This document shows positions 49,495 to 60,634 of a stretch of 64,000 nt of DNA, piece after piece. The translations under genes were made by a program, and so were the position numbers. Origin of the DNA: Candidatus Nomurabacteria bacterium (lineage in GTDB: Bacteria; Patescibacteriota; Minisyncoccia; Phycocordibacterales; JAACPR01); the NCBI GenBank assembly GCA_020632215.1, contig JACKFZ010000006.1, positions 12,574 through 76,573 of the forward strand. The letters are read 5' to 3'. The stretch's first letter is position 1. The number at the start of each line of letters is the position of its first letter. A model generated the notes under the pieces. The model was given only the letters and a program-made list of their open reading frames with translations. It did not search any database and was not told the origin of the DNA.

Positions 49495-49651
49495 ATTATT
49501 TTAATTAATTGATTAGATTATAAGTGAAAGAAAAATTCAGCACAACATCATATAAAACAAGTATAAATACAGGTAATCAACCCAAGGTTAAAGAATATCA
49601 AAAGCCCATTATAAAATTGTGATTAGATCACTCCGATACTTTGTTTTTACT

Positions 49652-49845
49652 GCGGTGTTTTTTGAACGAAGTTCGAACATTTTTTGAGCAAAACCTTGAA
49701 AACTAATTTGGACTCGGCGGGGCAAACTATTTTTCTGGGGAAATGGAATTGCCCCGCCTCGGCTTTCTTCCCGCCCGCAGGAGGGGTCTGGGGAGGAATG
49801 CGGGCGGGATTTTGAACCTTTCCTTTTTCGCTTCCGAATTTCGTG
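49652..49845 (-). repeat. copy 1 (inverted) of the ~194-bp GC-rich structured repeat A
   Basis: Reverse complement is identical to 58467..58659 along the portion compared by eye (the ~130-bp core). Contains two long GC hairpins (tcccgcccgca...tgcgggcggga and gaggcggggcaa...ttgccccgcc). The track ORF 49647..49868 is most likely not coding. Confidence 0.8.
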
Positions 49846-49868
49846 CCAGTTGAAAACTGGCGCGCCAC

Positions 49869-50459
49869 CTAATAATACTTCAATTTTGAATAATGCAATT
49901 TGTCGTGTGCTTCAAACAATATCTTGATCGCTTTTTTTGCATTTTTTTCTATTTCATTTTGTAAAACACTTGATTCAGTCCACATAAACGCATTTTTTAT
50001 TGAATCTTTAAATTGCGGTCTCGTTCCTTTTTTGTCTGTTGTGTTTTCTTTGCTTATCCCGTGAACAAATTCATTCCTTAAATCAAAAAGCGTCACTAAT
50101 TTTTCAAATAAATCTTGATCAATAATTTTCTTGTTTTTTGCGGCTTCTAAAATTTTCCATCCAGTTTTTGTTTTCGCCGTTTCTTCATCAACTGGATTTT
50201 GATATGGCAAATCAAGCAATTTTGCAAGTTGTCGCTCTATTGTTACGGCGCACATTATAATACTTGCCACAAAATCGCCCACCAAAAAGGCGTGGCGCGC
50301 TTCTTCAAAGCAGGAATGAACATCGGGAGAAGAAAGATAGTCTTCATTTTCTGGGTTGTAATTGTCCAAAAGAAAACGCAAGCGCTCTTTTACCTCTTTT
50401 TCGTTACTCCGGATATAATCTTTCCAATACTGATCAATTTGTGTTTGGGTGTAGTGCAT
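49869..50459 (-). CDS. HEPN-motif protein (putative RNase) co-operonic with type I R-M
   Basis: R-x4-H signature RNEFVHG at residues ~129-135 of 196. Start codon lies 3 nt after the hsdR stop. No other domain recognised. Confidence 0.45.
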   Translation of the reverse strand: MHYTQTQIDQYWKDYIRSNEKEVKERLRFLLDNYNPENEDYLSSPDVHSCFEEARHAFLVGDFVASIIMCAVTIERQLAKLLDLPYQNPVDEETAKTKTGWKILEAAKNKKIIDQDLFEKLVTLFDLRNEFVHGISKENTTDKKGTRPQFKDSIKNAFMWTESSVLQNEIEKNAKKAIKILFEAHDKLHYSKLKYY

Positions 50460-50461
50460 AA

Positions 50462-53400
50462 TTAGATATCGGTGTATTTTTTAAAATTTTCCGCTTGCTC
50501 AAATATTTCTTTAAACACCTCATCTTTTGGCACAGGAGGATAGCCATTTTTATCAAGCGTAAGAATTAAATCAACTTTCAATTCGGCTTTGATATTATCT
50601 CTAGCTGACCAATCTGTGTATCTGGCTTTATCGTCGACAATTTTTTTAATCTCTTGCGACAATATAATCAATTTATCTTCGGGATATTCAAATTTATATT
50701 TTTCAGCAACTGCCTTCAAAATATCGTAAAAGGCTTTTTCTTCAAAATCTATCCCTAACCCTTCAAAAGATTTTCTTTCTTCTTGTAGTTGCTTGAATAG
50801 ATCAGCAAATTTATCTGCCACATCATCCAAAACATGACTTTGAAATACGTCAAAATCTTTTCGTTCGTTATAAAGTTCAATAAGTTTTTTTAGTTTCTTT
50901 GAAAAATCAACACCTTTAATTCGGTTTGTCTTCTTAAACTCATTAATAGCTTTTGCTAAAAGTTTTTGTAATAGTTTGATTTTCGTGTTTGGCAATTTAA
51001 TTTTTTCAATTTTTGCCAAATATTCATCACTAAAAATATCTGCGTTATTTTCCGGTTTGTTTTTATCAAGTTTAAATATTTCTTCTACTCCTTCACTAAT
51101 CAATGCTTCTTGTATCATCTGACGCACTTTTTCATTCATTTGTGCGGTATCCGGCGCATCTCCCTTGGTTAGTTTGTGAATAATTGATTTAATGGCAAAA
51201 TAAAAATGAATATAGTCTCGTTCAATCTGCGAAATTTTCTCACTTGCACAACAAAGATCATAAGCAGACCGCAACTTCTTCGTTATAGACATGAAGCGAT
51301 TCTCTAAATCAGCCGTAACTTGAACAAATTCAGCTGACCGATTCAAGCAATTCAATTTTTCCAAAGGAGAACCCTCAAAAAAAGGCTTGGTATCAAATCC
51401 ATGAAATAATTTTGAAAGCAAGTCGAGTTGATCTTTCACAATCCCCACCGCTTTATCTGCATCTGCAAAATCATCGCCATGCACCTTACTATATTTTGCA
51501 AGAGCAATATTCATGTTGCTTTTTATTCCAATATAATCAACTACCAAGCCAACTTCTTTACCTTCATAAACACGATTGACGCGAGAAATTGTTTGAATTA
51601 GTGAATGTTGTTGAACAGGTTTGTCAATATAAATCGCCTCCAAAAAAGGCACATCAAAACCAGTAAGCCACATATCAACGACAATAGCGATTTTGAAATT
51701 TGATTTTGCATTTTTGAACTGGCGATCAAGCTCTTTTCTATCTTCTTTTGTCCCTAGCATGTCATACAGCGCTTTTTCATCATCCTTATTGCGAGTCATC
51801 ACCATTTTAATCTTCTCAATTGGCTTGATTTCTCGCTTTTCCTCTGTAGTGAGTTTTGCGCCTTCCTCGCATGCTTTAATTTCCCCCCATTCTGGTCTAA
51901 GTGAAATCACTTCTTTATAAAAATCGTAAGCAATCGGTCGGCTAGAGCAGACGAACATAACTTTACCTTTGACGCTTGCTCCTTCCTCAATTCGCTTTTC
52001 ATAATGTTCAACAAAATCTGTCGCTAAAAGTTTCAATCTCTTTGGATCACCCAAAATAACTTCCATCTGCGCTACAGCTTTTTTGCTTTCTTCTATTTGA
52101 TATTCATTTGCTCCTTCTTCTGCGCATTTGGCATAGTACTCTTCAATTTCCTTCAATTTAGCCTCATTTAATAGAACCTTCGCTGCTCGTCCTTCATAAA
52201 CAATTCTCACGGTAATTTCATCTTCTACCGATTCTTTCATTGTGTAGGCGTCGGCAACTTCACCAAAAACAGACAATGTGCCGTCAATCGGCGTACCGGT
52301 TACGCCAACATAAGTCGCATTTGGCAAAGAATCATGGAGGTATTTTGCAAACCCATATTTAACTTCCACACCCTTATCGGTAACCTTTAATTTTTGATCA
52401 AGATTTATCTGTGTTCGGTGTGCCTCATCGGAAATACAAATAACATTTGGCCTATCAGTCAAAAGCTCCGTATCTTCAGTAAATTTTTGAATCGTTGTAA
52501 GGTATACACCACCACCTTTGATACCTTGTAAGTGTTTTCGCAAATCAGCACGACTTTCAACGCTCAAAATCTTTTCTTCATTGATAAAGTTTTTGGCATT
52601 GGTAAATTGCTCAGACAATTGATCGTCCAAATCGGTTCTATCGGTAATGAGTACAATTGTCGGGCTAGATAATTCAACGCTCTTCATCAAGAGGCGTGAT
52701 AAATACAACATCGCAAAACTTTTACCCGATCCAGTCGCTCCAAAATATGTTCCACCTTTTCCGCTTCCGGTTGGCTTCATGTTCACCTTTATGCTTTCAT
52801 AGAGCTTTCGAGCGGCGTAATATTGCGGATAACGACAAACGATTTTTGCTTCGCTTTTTGAAGTGTCGGGGAAGTAGATAAAATTATGAATAACATCAAG
52901 TAGCCTGTTTTTGTCAAACAATCCTTTAATCAAGGTATAGAGTGAATCAATACCCTCACTTGGTTCATCAGTATTATTTACTTTTCTCCACGCGTAGAAA
53001 AAATCATAAGGTGAGAACAAAGACCCCATTTTGTTATTCACGCCATCGCTTATGACGCAAAAAGCGTTGTATTTCAGAAGTTCAGGAATATCTCGGCGAT
53101 AACGAACGGTCAATTGAGTATAGGCGTCTTTAATCGTGCAATTTTCTTTGACGGCACTTTTGAATTCAAAAACCACCAAAGGCAAGCCGTTTATATACAC
53201 GATTCCATCAGGAATTCTTTTTTCAGTTCCTTGAATTTCTAATTGATTAACAATTTTGAATATGTTATTCGAAGCAGTTTCAAAATCCAAGAGTTCAATA
53301 TAAATATCTTTTTGACTGCGATCTTCTCTTTTGAGAGTAAAGCCGTCAGCAATCAAACGAATAATATCCCTGTTGCTTTCATACAGCGCCGAGCTTGGAT

Positions 53401-53608
53401 AGAGATCGAGTTTTCGCAAAATTGAATCAATTTCATTTTGCGTTATACCAACACCCGCATATCTATTTTGAAGAAACGCACGCAAATCGTCACGCAGCAA
53501 AACATCACTCATTTCTTTGTGAATGGTTTCTCCGTGATGGTGCGGGATATCCACTTCTCCAAAAAGTTCTATAACCGCTTGTTCTAATGTTTCTTCAGTA
53601 AATTTCAT
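50462..53608 (-). CDS. hsdR: type I restriction enzyme R subunit
   Basis: Walker A GATGSGKS, DEAH box ISDEAHR, helicase motifs, length 1048 aa. Confidence 0.85.
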   Translation of the reverse strand: MKFTEETLEQAVIELFGEVDIPHHHGETIHKEMSDVLLRDDLRAFLQNRYAGVGITQNEIDSILRKLDLYPSSALYESNRDIIRLIADGFTLKREDRSQKDIYIELLDFETASNNIFKIVNQLEIQGTEKRIPDGIVYINGLPLVVFEFKSAVKENCTIKDAYTQLTVRYRRDIPELLKYNAFCVISDGVNNKMGSLFSPYDFFYAWRKVNNTDEPSEGIDSLYTLIKGLFDKNRLLDVIHNFIYFPDTSKSEAKIVCRYPQYYAARKLYESIKVNMKPTGSGKGGTYFGATGSGKSFAMLYLSRLLMKSVELSSPTIVLITDRTDLDDQLSEQFTNAKNFINEEKILSVESRADLRKHLQGIKGGGVYLTTIQKFTEDTELLTDRPNVICISDEAHRTQINLDQKLKVTDKGVEVKYGFAKYLHDSLPNATYVGVTGTPIDGTLSVFGEVADAYTMKESVEDEITVRIVYEGRAAKVLLNEAKLKEIEEYYAKCAEEGANEYQIEESKKAVAQMEVILGDPKRLKLLATDFVEHYEKRIEEGASVKGKVMFVCSSRPIAYDFYKEVISLRPEWGEIKACEEGAKLTTEEKREIKPIEKIKMVMTRNKDDEKALYDMLGTKEDRKELDRQFKNAKSNFKIAIVVDMWLTGFDVPFLEAIYIDKPVQQHSLIQTISRVNRVYEGKEVGLVVDYIGIKSNMNIALAKYSKVHGDDFADADKAVGIVKDQLDLLSKLFHGFDTKPFFEGSPLEKLNCLNRSAEFVQVTADLENRFMSITKKLRSAYDLCCASEKISQIERDYIHFYFAIKSIIHKLTKGDAPDTAQMNEKVRQMIQEALISEGVEEIFKLDKNKPENNADIFSDEYLAKIEKIKLPNTKIKLLQKLLAKAINEFKKTNRIKGVDFSKKLKKLIELYNERKDFDVFQSHVLDDVADKFADLFKQLQEERKSFEGLGIDFEEKAFYDILKAVAEKYKFEYPEDKLIILSQEIKKIVDDKARYTDWSARDNIKAELKVDLILTLDKNGYPPVPKDEVFKEIFEQAENFKKYTDI

Positions 53609-53610
53609 AA

Positions 53611-54741
53611 TTATTTAGTCGTTAAAGTATCAACCACTCCTTTCATCAAAACCGGACACAAAGGTGTAATCATATTTTTTAAATCTTCATTGAGTTTTTT
53701 TCTTGATTCCAAAACATAATGAATGGCAACAATTGATTTTTGCACTTCAATATCGGGTATTGGCAATCTTACTTCGCACATATCCTCCCAGTTAAATGTT
53801 TCTCTAGCACTACCCCAAGAATGAAAACGCGCGTATCTATCAAAATCAGAACGAGTGAACCAAAGATAAAGAAATTCAGGCAATAATTCTTCTTTTTTTG
53901 TAATCTCAAAAACGGGATAAATTTTTGAAACGATAAAATCTTCTTCTGTATTTAATGAAATTGGAATTCTTTCTCCCATTCTCGCCGTATTAGGGTTGAA
54001 TACAAATTGACCAACTTTCAAAAGTTTATAGCCAGAAAGTTCTACATCAGTCATGTTAGCTTTTGGCTTTATCAAAATTTTATGGATTGATACACCTCTT
54101 ACTTTACTAAGGGGCAAACCATAATTTTCGTATTCAGATTGCTGAATATAATCACCCAACCTCTTCAAGTCTTTTTTCTTTGCCAAATCTTCAATAAAAG
54201 TATCACAAATCAATTGCAAATCATCCAGACTGCTCTCATAACATTTCTGATTGCGAAGTAGTTCGTTATAAACCGCCACAACATTTTTTTGAACCCCGAT
54301 ATCATCTGGAATTGGTATCTCAATTTCACAAAATCGCTCCCATTCCAAACCACCCCTAACACTGCTATCACTAACATACCAAGAATATCTATCAAATTCC
54401 GGTTTTTGGAAAATCATCATTAGATATTCGGGAAGTAGCTTATTCGAATCTAAAACTTCAAAAGTAATATATGCAGGAGAAACAAGCGCAGGTTTATCCT
54501 CTGAATATAAAGATATCGGCAATCTTTCATCTCTGCCAACGTGCATAATGTTGCAAGCAAATCTATCTTTTCTAACTATTTTGTATTTTGATAAATCAAG
54601 ATCGGTTTGATTTGCCACCGACGGCATATAATTCTTGGTGATATTGATACCCAAAAGATTGCTTATCTCTAAGTTCTTGTTTCGCTCGTCTACGAGTTGA
54701 ATATAATCGCCAAGTTTTTTATAATTCAATTTCATAGCCAA
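53611..54741 (-). CDS. hsdS: type I restriction-modification specificity subunit
   Basis: Two target-recognition half-domains of similar length, separated by a conserved helical spacer. Sits between hsdM and hsdR. Confidence 0.8.
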   Translation of the reverse strand: MAMKLNYKKLGDYIQLVDERNKNLEISNLLGINITKNYMPSVANQTDLDLSKYKIVRKDRFACNIMHVGRDERLPISLYSEDKPALVSPAYITFEVLDSNKLLPEYLMMIFQKPEFDRYSWYVSDSSVRGGLEWERFCEIEIPIPDDIGVQKNVVAVYNELLRNQKCYESSLDDLQLICDTFIEDLAKKKDLKRLGDYIQQSEYENYGLPLSKVRGVSIHKILIKPKANMTDVELSGYKLLKVGQFVFNPNTARMGERIPISLNTEEDFIVSKIYPVFEITKKEELLPEFLYLWFTRSDFDRYARFHSWGSARETFNWEDMCEVRLPIPDIEVQKSIVAIHYVLESRKKLNEDLKNMITPLCPVLMKGVVDTLTTK

Positions 54742-56299
54742 GATGTTTAAATGCCTCCATTAGTTTTTCTTGCGAATCCTTTTCCTCTGCAAGAATATTG
54801 GTGAATTGTTTTTGAATCCGCTTCATTTCTTTGTCGTAGTTAATTTTGCTATCACGATCAACAAATTCAATGTATTTGCTCGGAATGAGCGACCAATTAT
54901 TTTTCTCAATTTCTTCGATGTTTGCGCTATAGCAAAACTCCGGAATATTTTTGTAGCTTTTTTCAAAACCCTCTCTCTGCCAGTTGTGATATGTAGAGAC
55001 TACCTCTTGGATATCGGCATCAGTGAGCTGAATATACTTTTTTTCGTATTCTTCACCTTTTCGGCGTAAATCCATAAACAATATCTCATCTTGTCTGTTG
55101 CGGTATTTCACCATTGCACCATTATGTTCAATGCTTCTAGCTTGCTTGTTTTTATTAAGAATCCAGAGCGTAACACTAATATCCGTGCTATAGAACATAT
55201 CTCGTGGCAAAACGATAATTGCTTCTACAAGGTGATTTTTGATAAACTGTTTTCTTATTGCAACCGTGTCAGGATCTCCAAGTGCGCCATTGGCAAGCAA
55301 AAATCCGGCTACTCCATTTGAGGAAAGCTTGGATGCCATATGTAAAATCCAGCCATAATTTGCATTACTAACCGGAGGCACATCATATCCCGCCCATCGC
55401 GGATCAGTGGTGAGTTCATTTGCACCTCGCCAATCCTTTTGATTGAATGGCGGATTTGCCATTATAAAATCTGCTTTGAGATCTTTGTGTTGATCTTTGC
55501 CAAAAGTATCAGCGGCGGTTTCTCCCAAATTTGAAGAGATGCCACGAATAGCCAAGTTCATTTTTGCCAGTTTGTATGTAGTCGGAATACTTTCTTGTCC
55601 GTAAATCGCAACTTCTTTGGTGTTTCCGTGATGCGCTTCAATAAATTTTATTGATTGCACAAACATACCGCCGGAACCACAGCAAGGATCATAGATTTTA
55701 CCTTTGTATGGCTCAATAAGTTCAGCAATCAGATTGACTATATTTTTGGGAGTATAAAATTCACCTTTACCTTTTCCTTCTGCGATCGCAAACTTTCTCA
55801 AAAAATATTCGTAAATTCTGCCGATAATATCGTGGGACTTATCTTTGAGTGTATCAATTTTGTGAATTTCATCTAATAAGGCTCCGAGTTTTGTAGTATC
55901 AAGATTTAATCGTGAATAGTAGTTATCTGGCAAAGCGCCTTTGAGTGCAGGATTCTTTTTTTCTACAGTAAATAATGCCGTATCTATTTTTATTGAAATA
56001 TCACTTTGTTTGGCGTTTTTTATCAAATAACTCCATCTTGATTCTTCGGGGAGATAAAACACGTTTTTCATCGTGTAAAAATCCACCATCTCCAGATATT
56101 TTTCTTTACCCTCGGCGATAAGTTCATTTCTTCGTTCCTCAAATTTATCACTGGCAAATTTTAAAAATATCAAGCCGAGCACAACGTGCTTGTATTCAGA
56201 AGGCTCAACAGTTCCCCGAAGTTTATTGGCAGATTCCCAAAGAGATTCTTCAATACTCTTCTGCTTCTTTTCTTTTTTAGGTTTAGTAGTTCTTGTCAT
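54719..56299 (-). CDS. hsdM: type I restriction-modification N6-adenine DNA methyltransferase subunit
   Basis: N-terminal HsdM_N (LWESANKLRG), SAM motif I DPCCGSGGMF, and motif IV FIMANPPFN. Confidence 0.85.
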   Translation of the reverse strand: MTRTTKPKKEKKQKSIEESLWESANKLRGTVEPSEYKHVVLGLIFLKFASDKFEERRNELIAEGKEKYLEMVDFYTMKNVFYLPEESRWSYLIKNAKQSDISIKIDTALFTVEKKNPALKGALPDNYYSRLNLDTTKLGALLDEIHKIDTLKDKSHDIIGRIYEYFLRKFAIAEGKGKGEFYTPKNIVNLIAELIEPYKGKIYDPCCGSGGMFVQSIKFIEAHHGNTKEVAIYGQESIPTTYKLAKMNLAIRGISSNLGETAADTFGKDQHKDLKADFIMANPPFNQKDWRGANELTTDPRWAGYDVPPVSNANYGWILHMASKLSSNGVAGFLLANGALGDPDTVAIRKQFIKNHLVEAIIVLPRDMFYSTDISVTLWILNKNKQARSIEHNGAMVKYRNRQDEILFMDLRRKGEEYEKKYIQLTDADIQEVVSTYHNWQREGFEKSYKNIPEFCYSANIEEIEKNNWSLIPSKYIEFVDRDSKINYDKEMKRIQKQFTNILAEEKDSQEKLMEAFKHLGYEIEL

Positions 56300-56301
56300 A
56301 C

Positions 56302-58068
56302 TTATATTTTATTAAATGCCTTTCTTATAACTCCCGCCATGAGTTTTCTTCTTTCTTGGAGGAATGTATCATATTCAAGCTGATAAAAATTTTCTGGAAT
56401 AGCGTGCTCTGCCAGCATTTCTTTAATTTCGCTCTCGCCGAACCTTTTTTGCACCATTGCAAAATATTCGCTTGGTTTGTCGTCGCTGATTTCGATATTA
56501 TCTTCAAATTCCAAAAATGTCAGATTGGCAATCTGGTTTATTTTTGCCTTGTCTTTGTTCTTATCAAATCCATATTTTGAAATGAGATAATTTCGTGGGA
56601 ATATGTGATGTTTTTCCAAACGCTTCTTTTTAATCTTTAAAGACGGATCATAAAGATCGCCTACAAGTTTGCGAGAAAATAAAACTGGCGAGCCGAGCTT
56701 GTTGAGCGCGGCATAAAAAGCATTTGCCTCTGGGCTTCTTGCTGATGATGTTTCCATTTGCCCGACAAGCGTAATATCCCAAAAATCATTGGTTAAATTC
56801 TCACCAATTATCTTTTCAAGTCCGCTGATAAATCCGTCGTGGCTAAACTCTTTTATTCTGTTTAGATCCTTTTCAAAGGCGGTTTCTGGTGAAGAAGAAT
56901 ATCTACCTGTCAGAGAAGACATCACGAACCAGCGCCCGATAATTCTTTGCAATTCGTGATTTTGCGTATTGAAATTTTGTTTTCCAATAAGATAAAGAAT
57001 ATAGCTATACAAAACGGCATTTTTTGACGATATAAGTTCTTCATCTTTATATCCGCCACCAATAAGAATTTTCAGAAAACTTTGCCAATTCGTATTATCA
57101 AGGATAGTCGGCAAATTTAATTTCAATTTATCAAATTGATGCGTTCGCAATTCTTCTGAAAATTCTCCTGTTTCCATATCGCGTCCGCGAATAATGGAGT
57201 AGACATCTTTCATTTTTGCTCGGTGGAATGTCAGACCAACTAAAACGCGAAGCATATCGTCCGGATCGGGCTTTATCAAATAATTGAAAGACGAAAAACG
57301 AGTTTCTTTTTCTGGAATTTTTCTTGAATCAATACAAAACTGCTCAATTTCTTTCCTGCCCTCTTCCCAATAGACGGAAAGTAAAGTCAAAATGAAATCA
57401 GCTTGCGTCAAACTCACCCCTTGACTGTTTATGCGAACAAAAATATCCGAGACAATTTCTTCCTCTAAATTCGGGGCAATTTCAAGAGCCGTGAGAGGAT
57501 ATTTATTGATGTTTATAAGCGATTGAATGTTTGAGGAAATTGTCTTTTCCTCTTCCTTTGTGATTTCTCTTTTTTCTTTAAGTGCCGAAATGAAATTGCT
57601 AATGATAGCAAAATCACCCTCGCCAGACCAAAGAGCTGAAAGGTCGGGAATATATTCGGGGTCGCGATCGGTCGCCGCGTCGCCGACTTTGAAAAGTGCG
57701 TCTATTGGGCGAAAAGCAATTTTGATAGCTTTGCTTTCATAATCAGGGGTCAAAACTTCCTGATTTTTCATAACGGCAAAAAGAGCCGTCAATCTTTGCT
57801 GTCCGTCAATTATCAAAAATCTCGGAATTTTCCTTTTCTTCTCATCAAAGCCAATATTTTTATAATCACTGCGATTGGCATTTTCCCAGAAAAGCAAATA
57901 TCCGATTGGATAACCACGATATATTGAATCAAATAAATCTCTAACTTTTGAGATTTTTTTATACCAAACGAACGGGCGTTGAATGTCTGGCAAAGCAATA
58001 TCGCCAATTTCAATATCGTCCATTAGTTTTCCAATCGTATAATCTGTTGTTTTGAATACTTGTGCCAT
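56302..58068 (-). CDS. GmrSD-like type IV restriction endonuclease (DUF262 + DUF1524)
   Basis: N-terminal DUF262 with DGQQRLTAL and C-terminal His-Me finger EKHHIFPRNY...ANLTFLEFEDN. Confidence 0.7.
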   Translation of the reverse strand: MAQVFKTTDYTIGKLMDDIEIGDIALPDIQRPFVWYKKISKVRDLFDSIYRGYPIGYLLFWENANRSDYKNIGFDEKKRKIPRFLIIDGQQRLTALFAVMKNQEVLTPDYESKAIKIAFRPIDALFKVGDAATDRDPEYIPDLSALWSGEGDFAIISNFISALKEKREITKEEEKTISSNIQSLININKYPLTALEIAPNLEEEIVSDIFVRINSQGVSLTQADFILTLLSVYWEEGRKEIEQFCIDSRKIPEKETRFSSFNYLIKPDPDDMLRVLVGLTFHRAKMKDVYSIIRGRDMETGEFSEELRTHQFDKLKLNLPTILDNTNWQSFLKILIGGGYKDEELISSKNAVLYSYILYLIGKQNFNTQNHELQRIIGRWFVMSSLTGRYSSSPETAFEKDLNRIKEFSHDGFISGLEKIIGENLTNDFWDITLVGQMETSSARSPEANAFYAALNKLGSPVLFSRKLVGDLYDPSLKIKKKRLEKHHIFPRNYLISKYGFDKNKDKAKINQIANLTFLEFEDNIEISDDKPSEYFAMVQKRFGESEIKEMLAEHAIPENFYQLEYDTFLQERRKLMAGVIRKAFNKI

Positions 58069-58072
58069 ATTT

Positions 58073-58282
58073 TTATTTCATTAAATCATCAAGCGAAACG
58101 CCAAGAGCATCCGCAATTTTTTTAACTGTTTCAATGGTGGGGTTGGGAGTAGAGCCAGCTTCAATTTTGGCAATCGTATGAAAAGCCAAATCCGCCTTTT
58201 TTGAAAGCTGATCCTGCGAAATGCCGAGCTTGTTTCGGTATTTCTTTATATTGTCTGCGATTGTGGATTTTTCCTTTGACAT
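58073..58282 (-). CDS. XRE-family helix-turn-helix transcriptional regulator
   Basis: NIKKYRNKLGISQDQLSKKADLAFHTIAKIEAG. First gene of the operon, with a 4-nt gap to the GmrSD-like gene. Confidence 0.7.
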   Translation of the reverse strand: MSKEKSTIADNIKKYRNKLGISQDQLSKKADLAFHTIAKIEAGSTPNPTIETVKKIADALGVSLDDLMK

Positions 58283-58466
58283 ATTCGTATAGTTTTACTA
58301 TTATAGTTGTATAGTATTAAAAATATCACTTATCAATAGTTAGTATATGAAATTTTTAGCATTTAGTCAAAGAAAAATTTTAGGGAGTTCCTTAGTGTTG
58401 CCCGCGAATGGGTTGGGTGGGTCAAGGGCAACATCTTCTTTGGCGGCGCATTTTACTTTGCAAAAT

Positions 58467-58659
58467 ACGAAATTCGGAAGCGAAAAAGGAAAGGTTCAAA
58501 ATCCCGCCCGCATTCCTCCCCAGACCCCTCCTGCGGGCGGGAAGAAAGCCGAGGCGGGGCAATTCCATTTCCCCAGAAAAATAGTTTGCCCCGCCGAGTC
58601 CAAATTAGTTTTCAAGGTTTTGCTCAAAAAATGTTCGAACTTCGTTCAAAAAACACCGC
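58467..58659 (+). repeat. copy 2 (direct) of GC-rich structured repeat A
   Basis: Inverted repeat of 49652..49845. The track ORF 58347..58916 runs through it. Confidence 0.8.
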
Positions 58660-58789
58660 CAATTTTCACTTTTTGTGAAATCGTAAGAAACAGCCTCGGC
58701 GCAAAGCGCCTCGGCATGGTATTTTTCCGCAATTTTGAAGGCATTTTTGAAATCCAAAACCAAAGTGCGGTCGGCAATGCGGAAGTTCG
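58656..58789 (-). repeat. repeat B: inverted duplicate of the last ~134 bp of the serine recombinase gene
   Basis: Reverse complement equals 60273..60406. Ends in the hexamer ccgcca, which is the 3' end of tRNA-Ser. Confidence 0.8.
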
Positions 58790-58903
58790 CAGAGCGAAGC
58801 TCTGGCAAAATGAAATTTTGCAAACCAATCTTTTTTCTTTCGCCTTTGGCGAAAGGTTGAGCGTATTTTTCTTTGATTGCCCAAAAACTAACTATCAAAA
58901 AAT

Positions 58904-60634
58904 ATGGACAACATAAATTTACAAACCAAAAAGATTTTTCTCTATGCCCGTAAATCCACGGACGAACCCGAAAGGCAGGTTTTGAGTATTGAGGCGCAAA
59001 TGTTTGAATTGCGAGAATATGCCAAAAAAGAGGGATTGAATATCGTCCGTGAATTTGTGGAAAGCAAAACCGCCAAAGAGCCGGGCAGAGAGATTTTTAA
59101 TGAAATGGTTGCAAGCATAGAGAAAAATGAAGCCGAAGGAATTTTAGCGTGGCACCCCGATAGATTGGCGAGAAATAGCATAGACGGCGGAAGAATAATT
59201 TATCTAGTAGATACTGGTAAAATAACCACGCTAAAATTTCCCACTTTTTGGTTTGATCCGACACCGCAGGGAAAATTTATGTTATCAATCGCTTTTGGGC
59301 AATCAAAATATTATGTGGATAATCTTTCGGAAAATATAAGGAGGGGTATTCGCCAGAAATTGCGAAATGGAATATGGCCCGCTTGGGCGCCACTCGGATA
59401 TTTGAACGACAAAAATCAGAGAAAAATTGTGGTTGATAAGGAAAAAGCAAAATATATAAAGCGGGCTTTTGAAATGTATGCAACTGGCGAATACCCCCTC
59501 TCTCAAATCCGAAAGATTATCAATTCCTTGGGCTTGGTTGGCAAGAAAGGCAAAATGCTTTCCGTCTCCAATTACCAATATATGCTCAAGAACAAAATCT
59601 ATTACGGCGTGATTGAATACAATGGCGAATTGTATGACGGAAAGCACGAACCGATTATCACAAAGAAACTTTTTGATTCCGTTCAAGAAGTGATGATGAA
59701 TAAAAGCAAACCGAAAACGCCAAAATTGAAACCTTATGTGTATAGAGGATTTTTCCGTTGCGGAGAGTGCGGTTGCTTCATCACTACCGAAACCCAAAAA
59801 GGTCACAACTATTTGCGATGTACCAAGCGGAAAAATCCTTGCCAGCAAAAATATGTCCGCGAAGAAATCATCACTTCTCAAATAAAAAAAGAAATCAAAA
59901 AAGTTTCTTTGTCTTCCGCTTGGGCAAACGCTTCAATCAATTATTTTGAAAACGAAAAAATGAAAATTGCCCAAGCGGAAAGCTCTTTCGCCCAAAAAGC
60001 GAGAAATGAGCTGGTAGAAATAGAAACGAAACTTGATCGCTTGCTTGATTTACAGTTAGACGGCAATTTGTCGCAAGCGGAATATACCGCTAAAAAACAA
60101 AAGATCATTCTCGCTAAAAAAGATTTGGAAGAAAAAATCTCGTCTTTTGGGCGAAAGAGCAATAATCGGTTCGAACTTGCCATTGCCTTTCTAAAAGACG
60201 CCAACCAAGCCGAAAAATACGCTCAACAAGAAAATCCCGAAAGGATTCGGGATTTTCTCAAAAAGATTGGTTCGAACTTCCGCATTGCCGACCGCACTTT
60301 GGTTTTGGATTTCAAAAATGCCTTCAAAATTGCGGAAAAATACCATGCCGAGGCGCTTTGCGCCGAGGCTGTTTCTTACGATTTCACAAAAAGTGAAAAT
60401 TGGCGGAGAGTTAGGGATTCGAACCCTAGAAGGGCTATAAACCCTTACCTCGTTAGCAGTGAGGCGCTTTCGACCACTCAGCCAACTCTCCAAGTAGAGC
60501 AAAATGTAACATATTTTATTCTTTTTTTCTATCTCCATTTATATGCTATATTCTTTTATGGAAAAAACGCCCATGACAACAAGAGAGACCCTTCAAGGAC
60601 TCCCGTCCTTCGAATACTTGGTGGGTCTAGTTAG
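58904..60634 (+). CDS. large serine recombinase (resolvase/invertase N-domain, recombinase domain, zinc ribbon, coiled coil)
   Basis: Catalytic YARKSTDEPERQ...SIEAQ, zinc ribbon CGECGC...C, and a long coiled coil. The frame stays open through the antisense tRNA-Ser, so the true C-terminus is uncertain. Confidence 0.7.
   Translation: MDNINLQTKKIFLYARKSTDEPERQVLSIEAQMFELREYAKKEGLNIVREFVESKTAKEPGREIFNEMVASIEKNEAEGILAWHPDRLARNSIDGGRIIYLVDTGKITTLKFPTFWFDPTPQGKFMLSIAFGQSKYYVDNLSENIRRGIRQKLRNGIWPAWAPLGYLNDKNQRKIVVDKEKAKYIKRAFEMYATGEYPLSQIRKIINSLGLVGKKGKMLSVSNYQYMLKNKIYYGVIEYNGELYDGKHEPIITKKLFDSVQEVMMNKSKPKTPKLKPYVYRGFFRCGECGCFITTETQKGHNYLRCTKRKNPCQQKYVREEIITSQIKKEIKKVSLSSAWANASINYFENEKMKIAQAESSFAQKARNELVEIETKLDRLLDLQLDGNLSQAEYTAKKQKIILAKKDLEEKISSFGRKSNNRFELAIAFLKDANQAEKYAQQENPERIRDFLKKIGSNFRIADRTLVLDFKNAFKIAEKYHAEALCAEAVSYDFTKSENWRRVRDSNPRRAINPYLVSSEALSTTQPTLQVEQNVTYFILFFYLHLYAIFFYGKNAHDNKRDPSRTPVLRILGGSS
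60273..60406 (+). repeat. repeat B' (recombinase 3' coding end)
   Basis: Inverted partner of 58656..58789. Its right boundary coincides with the 3' end of tRNA-Ser. Confidence 0.8.
60401..60490 (-). tRNA. tRNA-Ser (anticodon GCU) with encoded CCA
   Basis: Reverse complement reads ggagagt...anticodon loop cTGCTAa...a long variable arm...T-arm GGTTCGAATCC...actctcc-g-cca. Confidence 0.75.

Follow-up and report, generated by a model that had tools for sequence, protein, structure and literature searches.

Serine integrases such as those of phiC31, Bxb1, A118/LI and TP901-1 are large serine recombinases (LSRs) composed of a resolvase catalytic domain, a recombinase domain and a zinc ribbon with a coiled coil, and they insert a circle into a single chromosomal attB; the sites have only a very short core in common and lack long direct repeats. 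To our knowledge, the canonical examples (phiC31, Bxb1 and A118) are productive only on attP and attB, or on attL and attR in the presence of a recombination directionality factor (RDF). The SSV-type ‘suicidal’ integrases (SSV1, pTN3 and pT26-2) are tyrosine recombinases with attP inside the integrase open reading frame (ORF); they target tRNA genes, their integration disrupts the integrase gene, and how such an element excises afterwards is a puzzle. They are said to be exclusive to Archaea, and the complete integrase gene is then said to act as a directionality factor (PMC8371274). Here, we describe an LSR element in a 64,000-nucleotide stretch (hereafter the window) of contig JACKFZ010000006.1 from a Candidatus Nomurabacteria bacterium. 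The element is a compact defence island of 10.75 kb, encoding GmrSD and a Type I restriction-modification (R-M) system and integrated at the 3' end of tRNA-Ser(GCU). Its anatomy and its boundaries we regard as practically certain, and on balance we read it as a bacterial serine-recombinase counterpart of the archaeal ‘suicidal’ integrases, with a built-in spare 3' end and attP.

An initial annotation of the window had pointed to a serine recombinase gene whose 3' end is duplicated as a perfect 134-bp inverted repeat, and this observation is confirmed. A repeat search recovered the arms at 58656-58789 and 60273-60406, 134 nt long, 100% complementary and separated by 1483 nt, which far exceeds the chance expectation for a perfect repeat of this length in 64 kb. 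As had been claimed, the minus-strand ORF at 58605..58898 encodes the same peptide (44 residues) followed by a different tail, CFLNEVRTFFEQNLEN; the recombinase ORF (58904..60634, 576 amino acids as assembled) meets no stop codon before the antisense tRNA and reads on through it; and the right arm ends in the acceptor 3' end of a tRNA-Ser. The terminal 6 nt of this arm (tggcgg, that is, CCGCCA) are the 3' end of tRNA-Ser(GCU), placed by ARAGORN on the minus strand at 60401-60491 in agreement with Rfam, and an Rfam scan of the window at the gathering threshold returned tRNAs and nothing else. The repeat search also found a second perfect inverted repeat, at 49652-49844 and 58467-58659 (193 nt, 100% complementary), which abuts the first and overlaps it by a 4-nt core, GCGG; the sequence following the left arm is found one further time in the window, as a direct copy from 49656. 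A repeat corresponding to the 134-nt one, with full arms, is present in 94 related loci, in 14 of which the arms are less than 90% identical. Chance and assembly error are excluded, because the repeat recurs, including in these 14 loci, whose arms no assembler could confuse.

In the following, P denotes the 3' end of the LSR gene, P' the sequence that follows P in the uninterrupted gene, and rc the reverse complement. From left to right, the window consists of a left flank, P' (49652-49844), cargo, rc(P') and rc(P) (58467-58789), a spacer S, the LSR gene, P (60273-60406) and the tRNA gene, with the LSR module bracketed by the inverted P arms of the 134-nt repeat and the cargo bracketed by the inverted P' arms of the 193-nt repeat. 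The right arm, on the plus strand, is the P arm of attR, and its codons account for a beta-hairpin, a helix and the initial turn of the terminal helix of the LSR (secondary structure from AlphaFold2); it ends in the attR core GCGG at 60403..60406, the right crossover between P and the tRNA. The tRNA-Ser(GCU) gene (60401..60491, minus strand) is the B' half of attB, as indicated by ARAGORN, Rfam and the comparison of half-sites. At the other end of the element, the attL core GCGG at 49652..49655 marks the left crossover between the B flank and P', as established by junction comparison and by the empty site described below. The P' arm at attL (49652..49844, plus strand) continues with the native LSR tail codons (49656-49706, CFLNEVRTFFEQNLEN and a stop), an exact second copy of the tail sequence lying at 49656-49689, and then with GC-rich hairpins. 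Comparison of the three junctions, attL (tactGCGGtgtttt), attR (attgGCGGagagtt) and an internal one (attgGCGGtgtttt), therefore identifies 58467-58789 as a complete attP in inverted orientation, which we term attP2. Its P' half (58467-58659), core (58656-58659) and P half (58656-58789) were delimited by repeat searches and ORFs, and its minus strand encodes NFRIADR...SENW, RCFLNEVRTFFEQNLEN and a stop codon (58605-58607). The left arm of the reported repeat, on the minus strand and adjoining S, does duplicate the gene's 3' end, as had been noted, but it is not a stray copy: together with the adjoining P' half, which occurs again at attL, this P half makes up a complete second attP.

The empty site predicted from these junctions, tactGCGGagagttaggg, is present in L176 and L177 (labels of this kind denote individual loci or contigs), two contigs from two other sequencing runs of the same organism that join the left flank straight to the tRNA at GCGG; the unoccupied tRNA-Ser site that the initial annotation had suggested looking for in relatives was thus found. 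An occupied attL was seen in L178, and right-flank contigs of the same organism break within the tRNA. One protein encoded in the flank falls into a cluster, at 90% identity or above, with a protein of Candidatus Nomurabacteria. The empty attB in this organism proves that what moves is a unit of 10,751 bp, inserted precisely (49652-60406), one end of which lies at the 3' terminus of the tRNA, as had been proposed. The idea that the recombinase rides on an invertible or transposable module holds insofar as the gene is bracketed by inverted repeats, but the 1.75-kb module is not the mobile unit. An independent transposon of the insertion-sequence type with 134-nt terminal repeats is likewise ruled out, as the empty site shows that the whole 10.75 kb was inserted.

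The empty attB, attL, attR and attP share only GCGG, and in L038 the common core is as short as CGG. The crossover lies in (G)CGG, which corresponds to the acceptor end and discriminator of the tRNA and to codons W498-R499 of the LSR. TTCGAA, which belongs to the T-arm, is found 12-17 nt from the core CGG in the tRNA half-site versus 17-22 nt in P', that is, 5 bp further out; in the model of an A118-type LSR on DNA by Rutherford et al. 2013, the zinc-ribbon motif is reportedly shifted 5 bp outward in attP as compared with attB. A palindromic crossover dinucleotide (CG) would imply that polarity is lost, but every junction seen places P next to the tRNA, which argues that core polarity is kept. 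Upon insertion, the end of the tRNA gene changes from CCGCAG to CCGCCA. The empty tRNA-Ser gene ends in ...CTCTCCGCAG, with no encoded CCA, and the occupied gene in ...CTCTCCGCCA (window positions 49650-49657 and 60401-60408, compared with L176/L177); the occupied gene thus owes its encoded CCA, and a new 3' trailer, to the element. An octamer, GCCGAGGC, occurs twice in the P arm (60345-60367, also 58695-58717), where it encodes AEA..AEA, and once, inverted, in P' (49766-49773 and 58538-58545) about 110 nt from the core; it is also the microhomology of the L183 deletion described further below.

As judged from its sequence, fold and att sites, the recombinase is a serine integrase. The gene body comprises 499 codons up to the crossover (58904..60400, plus strand; Pfam, Foldseek and phmmer) and encodes the Pfam domains PF00239 (Resolvase; residues 12-157, E 1.8e-20), PF07508 (Recombinase) and PF13408 (Zn_ribbon_recom). 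At the YxRxS(T) nucleophile motif, R13, K14, S15 and T16 are each present in at least 90% of 40 aligned homologues, and D17 is invariant. The top Foldseek matches are serine-integrase cryo-electron microscopy structures, Bxb1 and 4kis (E 5e-18 to 1e-11), and a phmmer search matched the A118 integrase. Among annotated phage and plasmid LSRs nothing exceeded 30% identity, IMG/VR yielded one distant match (58%), and an exact look-up of the read-through protein of the window returned no record. In an AlphaFold2 model of a full-length homologue, P0044 (mean predicted local distance difference test score, pLDDT, 78.6), long helices extend over residues 334-381 and 387-411, and the coiled coil leads into a beta-hairpin (452-466) and then a helix (470-485), before the chain closes with a terminal helix (494-509) running across the crossover codons; integration therefore cuts what is modelled as the final helix of the enzyme.

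The attP of the element (attP1) lies within its LSR gene. Integration through this site runs the gene into the antisense tRNA, at the cost of the final 16 residues, those past R499; the conserved last helix (RCFLNEVRTFFEQNLEN) is thereby swapped for antisense-tRNA read-through. Past a conserved ..NW, the C-termini of the 120 closest homologues (60-96% identity) are of two kinds: either RCFLDEVRTFFEQNP.. and a stop, the same tail as in the inverted copy of the window, or RRxRDSNPR.., a translation of the antisense tRNA T-arm. The first kind represents the gene without interruption, the second its integrated form. When 43 distinct tail copies are compared, variation in codons 9-15 (TFFEQNP) falls mostly on third positions (proportion of synonymous differences, pS, 0.43 versus 0.19 for non-synonymous ones, pN) and codons 1, 7 and 8 (CGG, GTT CGA) are fixed at all three positions; the tail is therefore protein-coding and at the same time part of the P' half-site. 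No RDF candidate was identified; the only recurrent neighbour of the LSR gene is a gene for a 69-residue XRE-type helix-turn-helix (HTH) protein. We considered whether the 97-residue ORF at 58605-58898 on the minus strand might be a gene in its own right, encoding for example an RDF or a C-terminal domain that acts in trans, and rejected this. Its start codon lies 5 nt from the LSR start on the opposite strand, and several lineages have in-frame stops upstream of the arm, where the frame is open for only 0-30 nt in Elusimicrobia, L024, L035, L112 and L133; the ORF is therefore not a gene, since the frame through S is not conserved.

The element belongs to a family with at least 538 loci in species-representative genomes and at least 571 in metagenomes of the Joint Genome Institute (JGI). 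Its hosts are mostly Patescibacteria of many classes, plus Elusimicrobia, and LSRs more than 90% identical to each other are found in different classes of the candidate phyla radiation (CPR). For a survey of the layout, 152 LSR hits were classified in about 175 fetched loci, some contigs being present in two collections. The family layout, shared by about 150 related loci with LSRs of 61-97% amino acid identity, is the B flank next to P', then cargo, rc(P'), rc(P), the LSR gene and P next to the tRNA. In 74 loci the LSR gene is followed by an antisense tRNA and preceded by an inverted attP whose tail ORF is intact; a contig end cuts the arm in a further 14, and another 8 have variant tails. 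Instead of a single copy of the 3' segment with a clean stop, relatives almost always have both copies and read-through into the tRNA. The 94 pairs of full arms include 40 that are perfect and 71 with at least 97% identity (median 99.25%), and arm length is 133-134 nt in 67 of them. Between elements the arm sequence differs, and the last 45 residues of the LSR form mosaic ‘cassettes’; as the arms match internally while the cassettes differ between elements, the two arms of any one element evolve in concert. In 23 loci with enough flank, cargos of about 1.3-7 kb are bracketed by the outer P' repeat (155-420 nt, 90-100% identity), as is the 8.6-kb cargo of the window. Four tRNA-Ser isoacceptors account for 110 targets, followed by tRNA-Gln (5), tRNA-Asp (2) and tRNA-Trp (1). 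At tRNA-Gln or tRNA-Asp targets (L051, L054, L064 and L107), core and tail differ accordingly (..IPW followed by LRLLNEIRTFFDENPDSDF). L002 (4643-11587; GCA_040772285.1, a 1.06-Mb contig) contains two diverged family elements 5 kb apart, at tRNA-Ser(tga) and tRNA-Ser(gct), each with its own matched arms; their repeat segments share 75-81% nucleotide identity, and the second LSR has 61% amino acid identity to that of the window.

Other arrangements occur as well. On the 543-kb contig L105, the order is tRNA-Ser (plus strand), rc(P), a 114-nt S, the LSR gene, P and the native tail, with the LSR gene intact and pointing away from the tRNA and with the far end of the cargo adjoining P'. This assembly is unambiguous, because the arms are only 86% identical, and the arrangement is the product expected of a circle that integrates via attP2 and leaves the LSR gene intact. 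L001 has the HTH region (91%) and the P arm and tail (97.7%) of the window, and its LSR gene is flipped relative to both the tRNA and the HTH gene. One identical LSR protein, P0097, is followed by cargo in either orientation in different samples, and one of these arrangements, L087, is unambiguous because its second arm is degenerate. The flipped relatives L001 and L105, together with the finding that CFLNEVRTFFEQNLEN is the conserved native C-terminus of the family, lend support to the earlier proposal that inversion would keep the recombinase gene intact and exchange its C-terminal tail. In L029 (9669-9758 and 11498-11587; the same contig as L120), two copies of tRNA-Ser(gga), identical at 90/90 positions and inverted, flank the LSR module; the outer flanks differ and no cargo lies between the tRNA copies, as if both attPs had recombined with attB sites. 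Recombinase-less remnants are found in L183 (3670-3830; closed genome CP129470.1) and L087 (11499-11610), where a 3' fragment of the tRNA and 44-45 nt of rc(P) are fused to the distal part of P', followed by the HTH gene and cargo. The join in L183 is made via an 8-nt microhomology, GCCTCGGC, and the fused distal P' begins about 100 nt from the core; the two loci appear to be fixed defence cargo left once the LSR module was deleted from the flipped state.

These observations can be accommodated in a model in which the excised circle would carry two inverted attPs. Integration of the circle through attP1 would give the self-truncated (‘suicidal’) state found in the window, and entry via attP2, or a flip of the 1.6-kb LSR module between the 134-nt arms, would leave or restore a full-length gene joined to its native tail. 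The arms would be kept near-identical by homologous recombination and gene conversion, most simply RecA-dependent. For the flip we favour recombination of the RecA type, on two grounds: attP and attR are not a pair that canonical LSRs recombine, and exchange limited to the core would fail to homogenise 323 nt. That attP2 is a partner in actual use, as an alternative integration site, as an inversion partner or as both, we consider probable. More tentatively, and short of calling it probable, we suggest that the spare lets the element alternate between a locked and a mobile role, in which a self-disrupting integrase would recover a complete gene with no help from outside. The truncated state predominates, which could then be interpreted as a locked end state reached from a mobile one. 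The boldest version, which we put forward as a doubtful but possible one, is that of a first ‘suicidal’ integrase outside Archaea and outside the tyrosine family that is able to rescue itself: clipping of the terminal helix would lock the element, the inverted spare would rebuild the enzyme, and the joined 3' end, not a separate directionality factor, would set directionality and mobility.

Several points weigh against this model. Canonical LSRs do not recombine attP with attR or attL, and the enzyme that would carry out the flip is thus one that we infer. Intact-LSR and other states are rare, with about three clear cases against about 96, and the isomers are known from differences between samples and between genomes, not from within one population. 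The perfect 134- and 193-nt arms leave the orientation in the assembly of the window formally ambiguous, and about 15% of the elements have mismatched arms (75-90%). Truncation leaves the catalytic, recombinase and zinc-ribbon domains of the LSR untouched. Finally, a closed circular contig was not recovered; L101 has attP on both sides of the LSR gene, and its ends do not overlap.

Among the alternatives, the one that survives best is a programmed switch, in which the LSR, by itself or helped by a partner (the adjacent HTH protein, for instance), would recombine attP2 both with attR, across the shared P arm, and with attL, across the shared P' arm. The site types would be regenerated, so that the system would flip freely and reversibly like Hin/Gin or the 2-micron plasmid. 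The sites are indeed inverted and share the core, inversion is compatible with core polarity, both isomers occur, and the P half-site pattern AAAnGTnnAAnnTGGCGG is retained even between arms of different cassette types. The established reactions of LSRs (phiC31, Bxb1 and A118) nevertheless do not include the pairing of attP2 with attR or attL, and a core-confined crossover would not homogenise 134 and 193 nt, the arms being 99-100% identical; we consider such a switch unlikely. Slightly less likely still is a mainly regulatory or insulating attP2, serving as an operator for repression, by the LSR, of the LSR promoter and of the divergent promoter of the cargo, complemented by bidirectional terminators, with inversion and alternative integration being incidental. 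Tn3 resolvase represses at res, attP2 sits exactly between a divergent promoter-like site of the cargo (58370-58342) and the LSR start, its P' region is rich in GC and in hairpins, and covarying hairpins flank it. An operator, however, needs about 50 bp and not 323 bp at 100% identity, the frame, the stop codon and the coding-type third-position substitution pattern of the tail are preserved, and in L105 the arm is actually joined to the tRNA.

We find it very improbable that attP2 serves as a single-strand splint, pairing as single-stranded DNA simultaneously with two arms, P' at attL and P at attR. On this account, single strands from competence, conjugation or the lagging strand would rebuild a duplex attP with the host flanks as flaps, and circularisation or integration of one strand would be precise. 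The internal copy is contiguous (P' plus P) and inverted, as a splint requires, complementarity at the nucleotide level extends over 134 and 193 nt and co-varies between elements, the hosts belong to the CPR, and the flank in the window has genes resembling those of type IV pili or type II secretion systems. Serine recombinases, however, work as a synaptic tetramer on duplex sites, where all four strands are cut, and the element encodes no single-strand nuclease, HUH or otherwise. Gene conversion accounts equally well for the identity of the arms, and the splint is purely speculative. Least credible of all is a non-functional scar of nested or tandem integration or rearrangement (the alternative given in the initial annotation), or an assembly artefact, for although degenerate remnants do occur at such sites (L087 and L183) and assemblers can mis-resolve perfect repeats longer than k, both are ruled out by the recurrence of the layout in about 100 independent assemblies, with LSR lineages 61-97% identical and across phyla, by arms of constant length that co-evolve within each element, and by loci with non-identical arms, which cannot be artefacts.

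Of the remaining parts of the element, the spacer S (58790..58903, plus strand) is, by its sequence, a degenerate remnant of an LSR 3' end (EKYAQ..KKIG). It is interrupted exactly at the boundary of the arm by tandem hairpins (58790-58804 and 58805-58821) and a T-rich run (58822-58840); the hairpins, CAGAGC-GAA-GCTCTG and GCAAAAT-GAA-ATTTTGC, begin at the first base past the left arm. Both are conserved in the family, where 8 of their 10 pairs show compensatory changes in 15 diverse loci, and this heterology of S explains the sharp end of the repeat between KKIGS and NF. S must also hold the LSR promoter, and the double hairpin with its T-run may be a terminator or insulator between the att arm and the LSR gene. 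In the flipped or attP2-integrated state, the hairpins would stand between the tRNA and the LSR gene and intercept read-through from the tRNA. A 42-nt imperfect (71%) inverted repeat links S (58845-58886) with LSR codons ~130-143 (59293-59334); it is also present in L086 and L105, which are too closely related to count as independent.

The cargo operon (49869..58282, minus strand) consists of six ORFs, five of which were assigned with Pfam. It is headed by a promoter-like site (TTGACT-17-TATACT, on the minus strand at the position given above), and encodes in turn the 69-residue XRE-type HTH protein (58073-58282), GmrSD (56302-58068), HsdM (54719-56299), HsdS (53611-54741), HsdR (50462-53608) and a 196-residue product with no assigned function (49869-50459), all on the minus strand. 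No replication gene was found among the cargo ORFs by Pfam, and no origin was seen. An HTH gene related to that of the window adjoins attP2 in 32 of 54 loci. An identical 69-residue XRE HTH protein, from a cluster of 264 members in several phyla, heads Type I, III and IIG R-M and GmrSD cargos (L184-L192), which suggests that it is a controller-like protein leading exchangeable defence cassettes.

The analysis defines a very widespread family of small LSR elements that have until now been annotated only as ‘recombinase family protein’. Given that LSRs more than 90% identical occur in different CPR classes, these elements appear to be a major vehicle by which restriction and defence genes move among ultra-small bacteria. 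CPR bacteria are hard to manipulate genetically, and the more than 100 natural sets of attP, attB, attL and attR sites, together with one exact empty site, provide material for serine-integrase tools and for CPR genetics. The family also extends the paradox of the suicidal integrase, described as exclusive to Archaea (PMC8371274), to Bacteria and to serine recombinases, and a spare inverted attP that includes the 3' end of the gene offers a directly testable solution to it. Should the C-terminal helix govern activity or directionality, the family would offer a new means of gating a serine integrase that requires no RDF.

How, then, does the element compare with known systems? We found no description of an architecture with a self-split serine integrase and a spare inverted attP in the searchable full-text literature. 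With the serine integrases introduced above it shares the domain organisation, the very short core, the entry of a circle into a single chromosomal attB and the outer motif that lies 5 bp further out in P-type than in B-type half-sites. It differs from them in its low identity (30% or less) to the annotated phage and plasmid LSRs, in having attP within the 3' coding end of the recombinase gene and a second attP in inverted orientation, and in an extra C-terminal mini-domain that ends in the helix cut by integration. Its target is the extreme 3' end of tRNA-Ser genes, less often of Gln, Asp and Trp genes, and its cargo is a few defence genes and not a phage. With the yeast 2-micron plasmid (Flp/FRT) it has in common a circle, in our case inferred, with two long near-identical inverted repeats that each contain a recombination site, the division of this circle into two unique segments, with the recombinase encoded on one of them, and the existence of two isomers. 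Flp, in contrast, is a tyrosine recombinase acting on identical FRT sites, and its reaction serves the copy-number amplification of a replicon; here, neither a replication gene nor an origin was seen, and recombination of attP with attP is no known LSR reaction. As in the G segment of Mu (Gin), P1 Cin, shufflons and intragenic invertons (10.1101/2023.03.11.532203), one arm of an inverted repeat lies in a coding region, and inversion exchanges a C-terminal end. In those systems, however, a small invertase or a tyrosine recombinase encoded outside the segment flips a different gene (such as one for a tail fibre or a pilin) at 26-34-bp sites, whereas here it is the recombinase gene itself that flips and the arms are 134-nt halves of att sites. 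Hin/Gin-type switches, which rely on a small serine invertase with a C-terminal HTH, crossover sites of about 26 bp and a Fis-dependent enhancer, are also set apart by the size of the enzyme, here an LSR of at least 499 residues without a C-terminal HTH domain, and by the position of its gene, here inside the segment.

The SSV-type ‘suicidal’ integrases provide the closest analogy in logic. They share with the element an attP within the integrase ORF, a tRNA target, disruption of the gene by integration and the question of how excision can follow. They are, however, tyrosine recombinases split mid-gene into Int(N) and Int(C), whereas here only the last 16 residues of a serine recombinase are exchanged, in Bacteria. 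The element has serine recombinase domains only, outside SSV/Phage_integr_3, and its family resides in Patescibacteria and Elusimicrobia. By this analogy, the system works like the SSV-type family without being a member of it, and unlike SSV-type elements it carries a spare copy of the end that its integrase loses.

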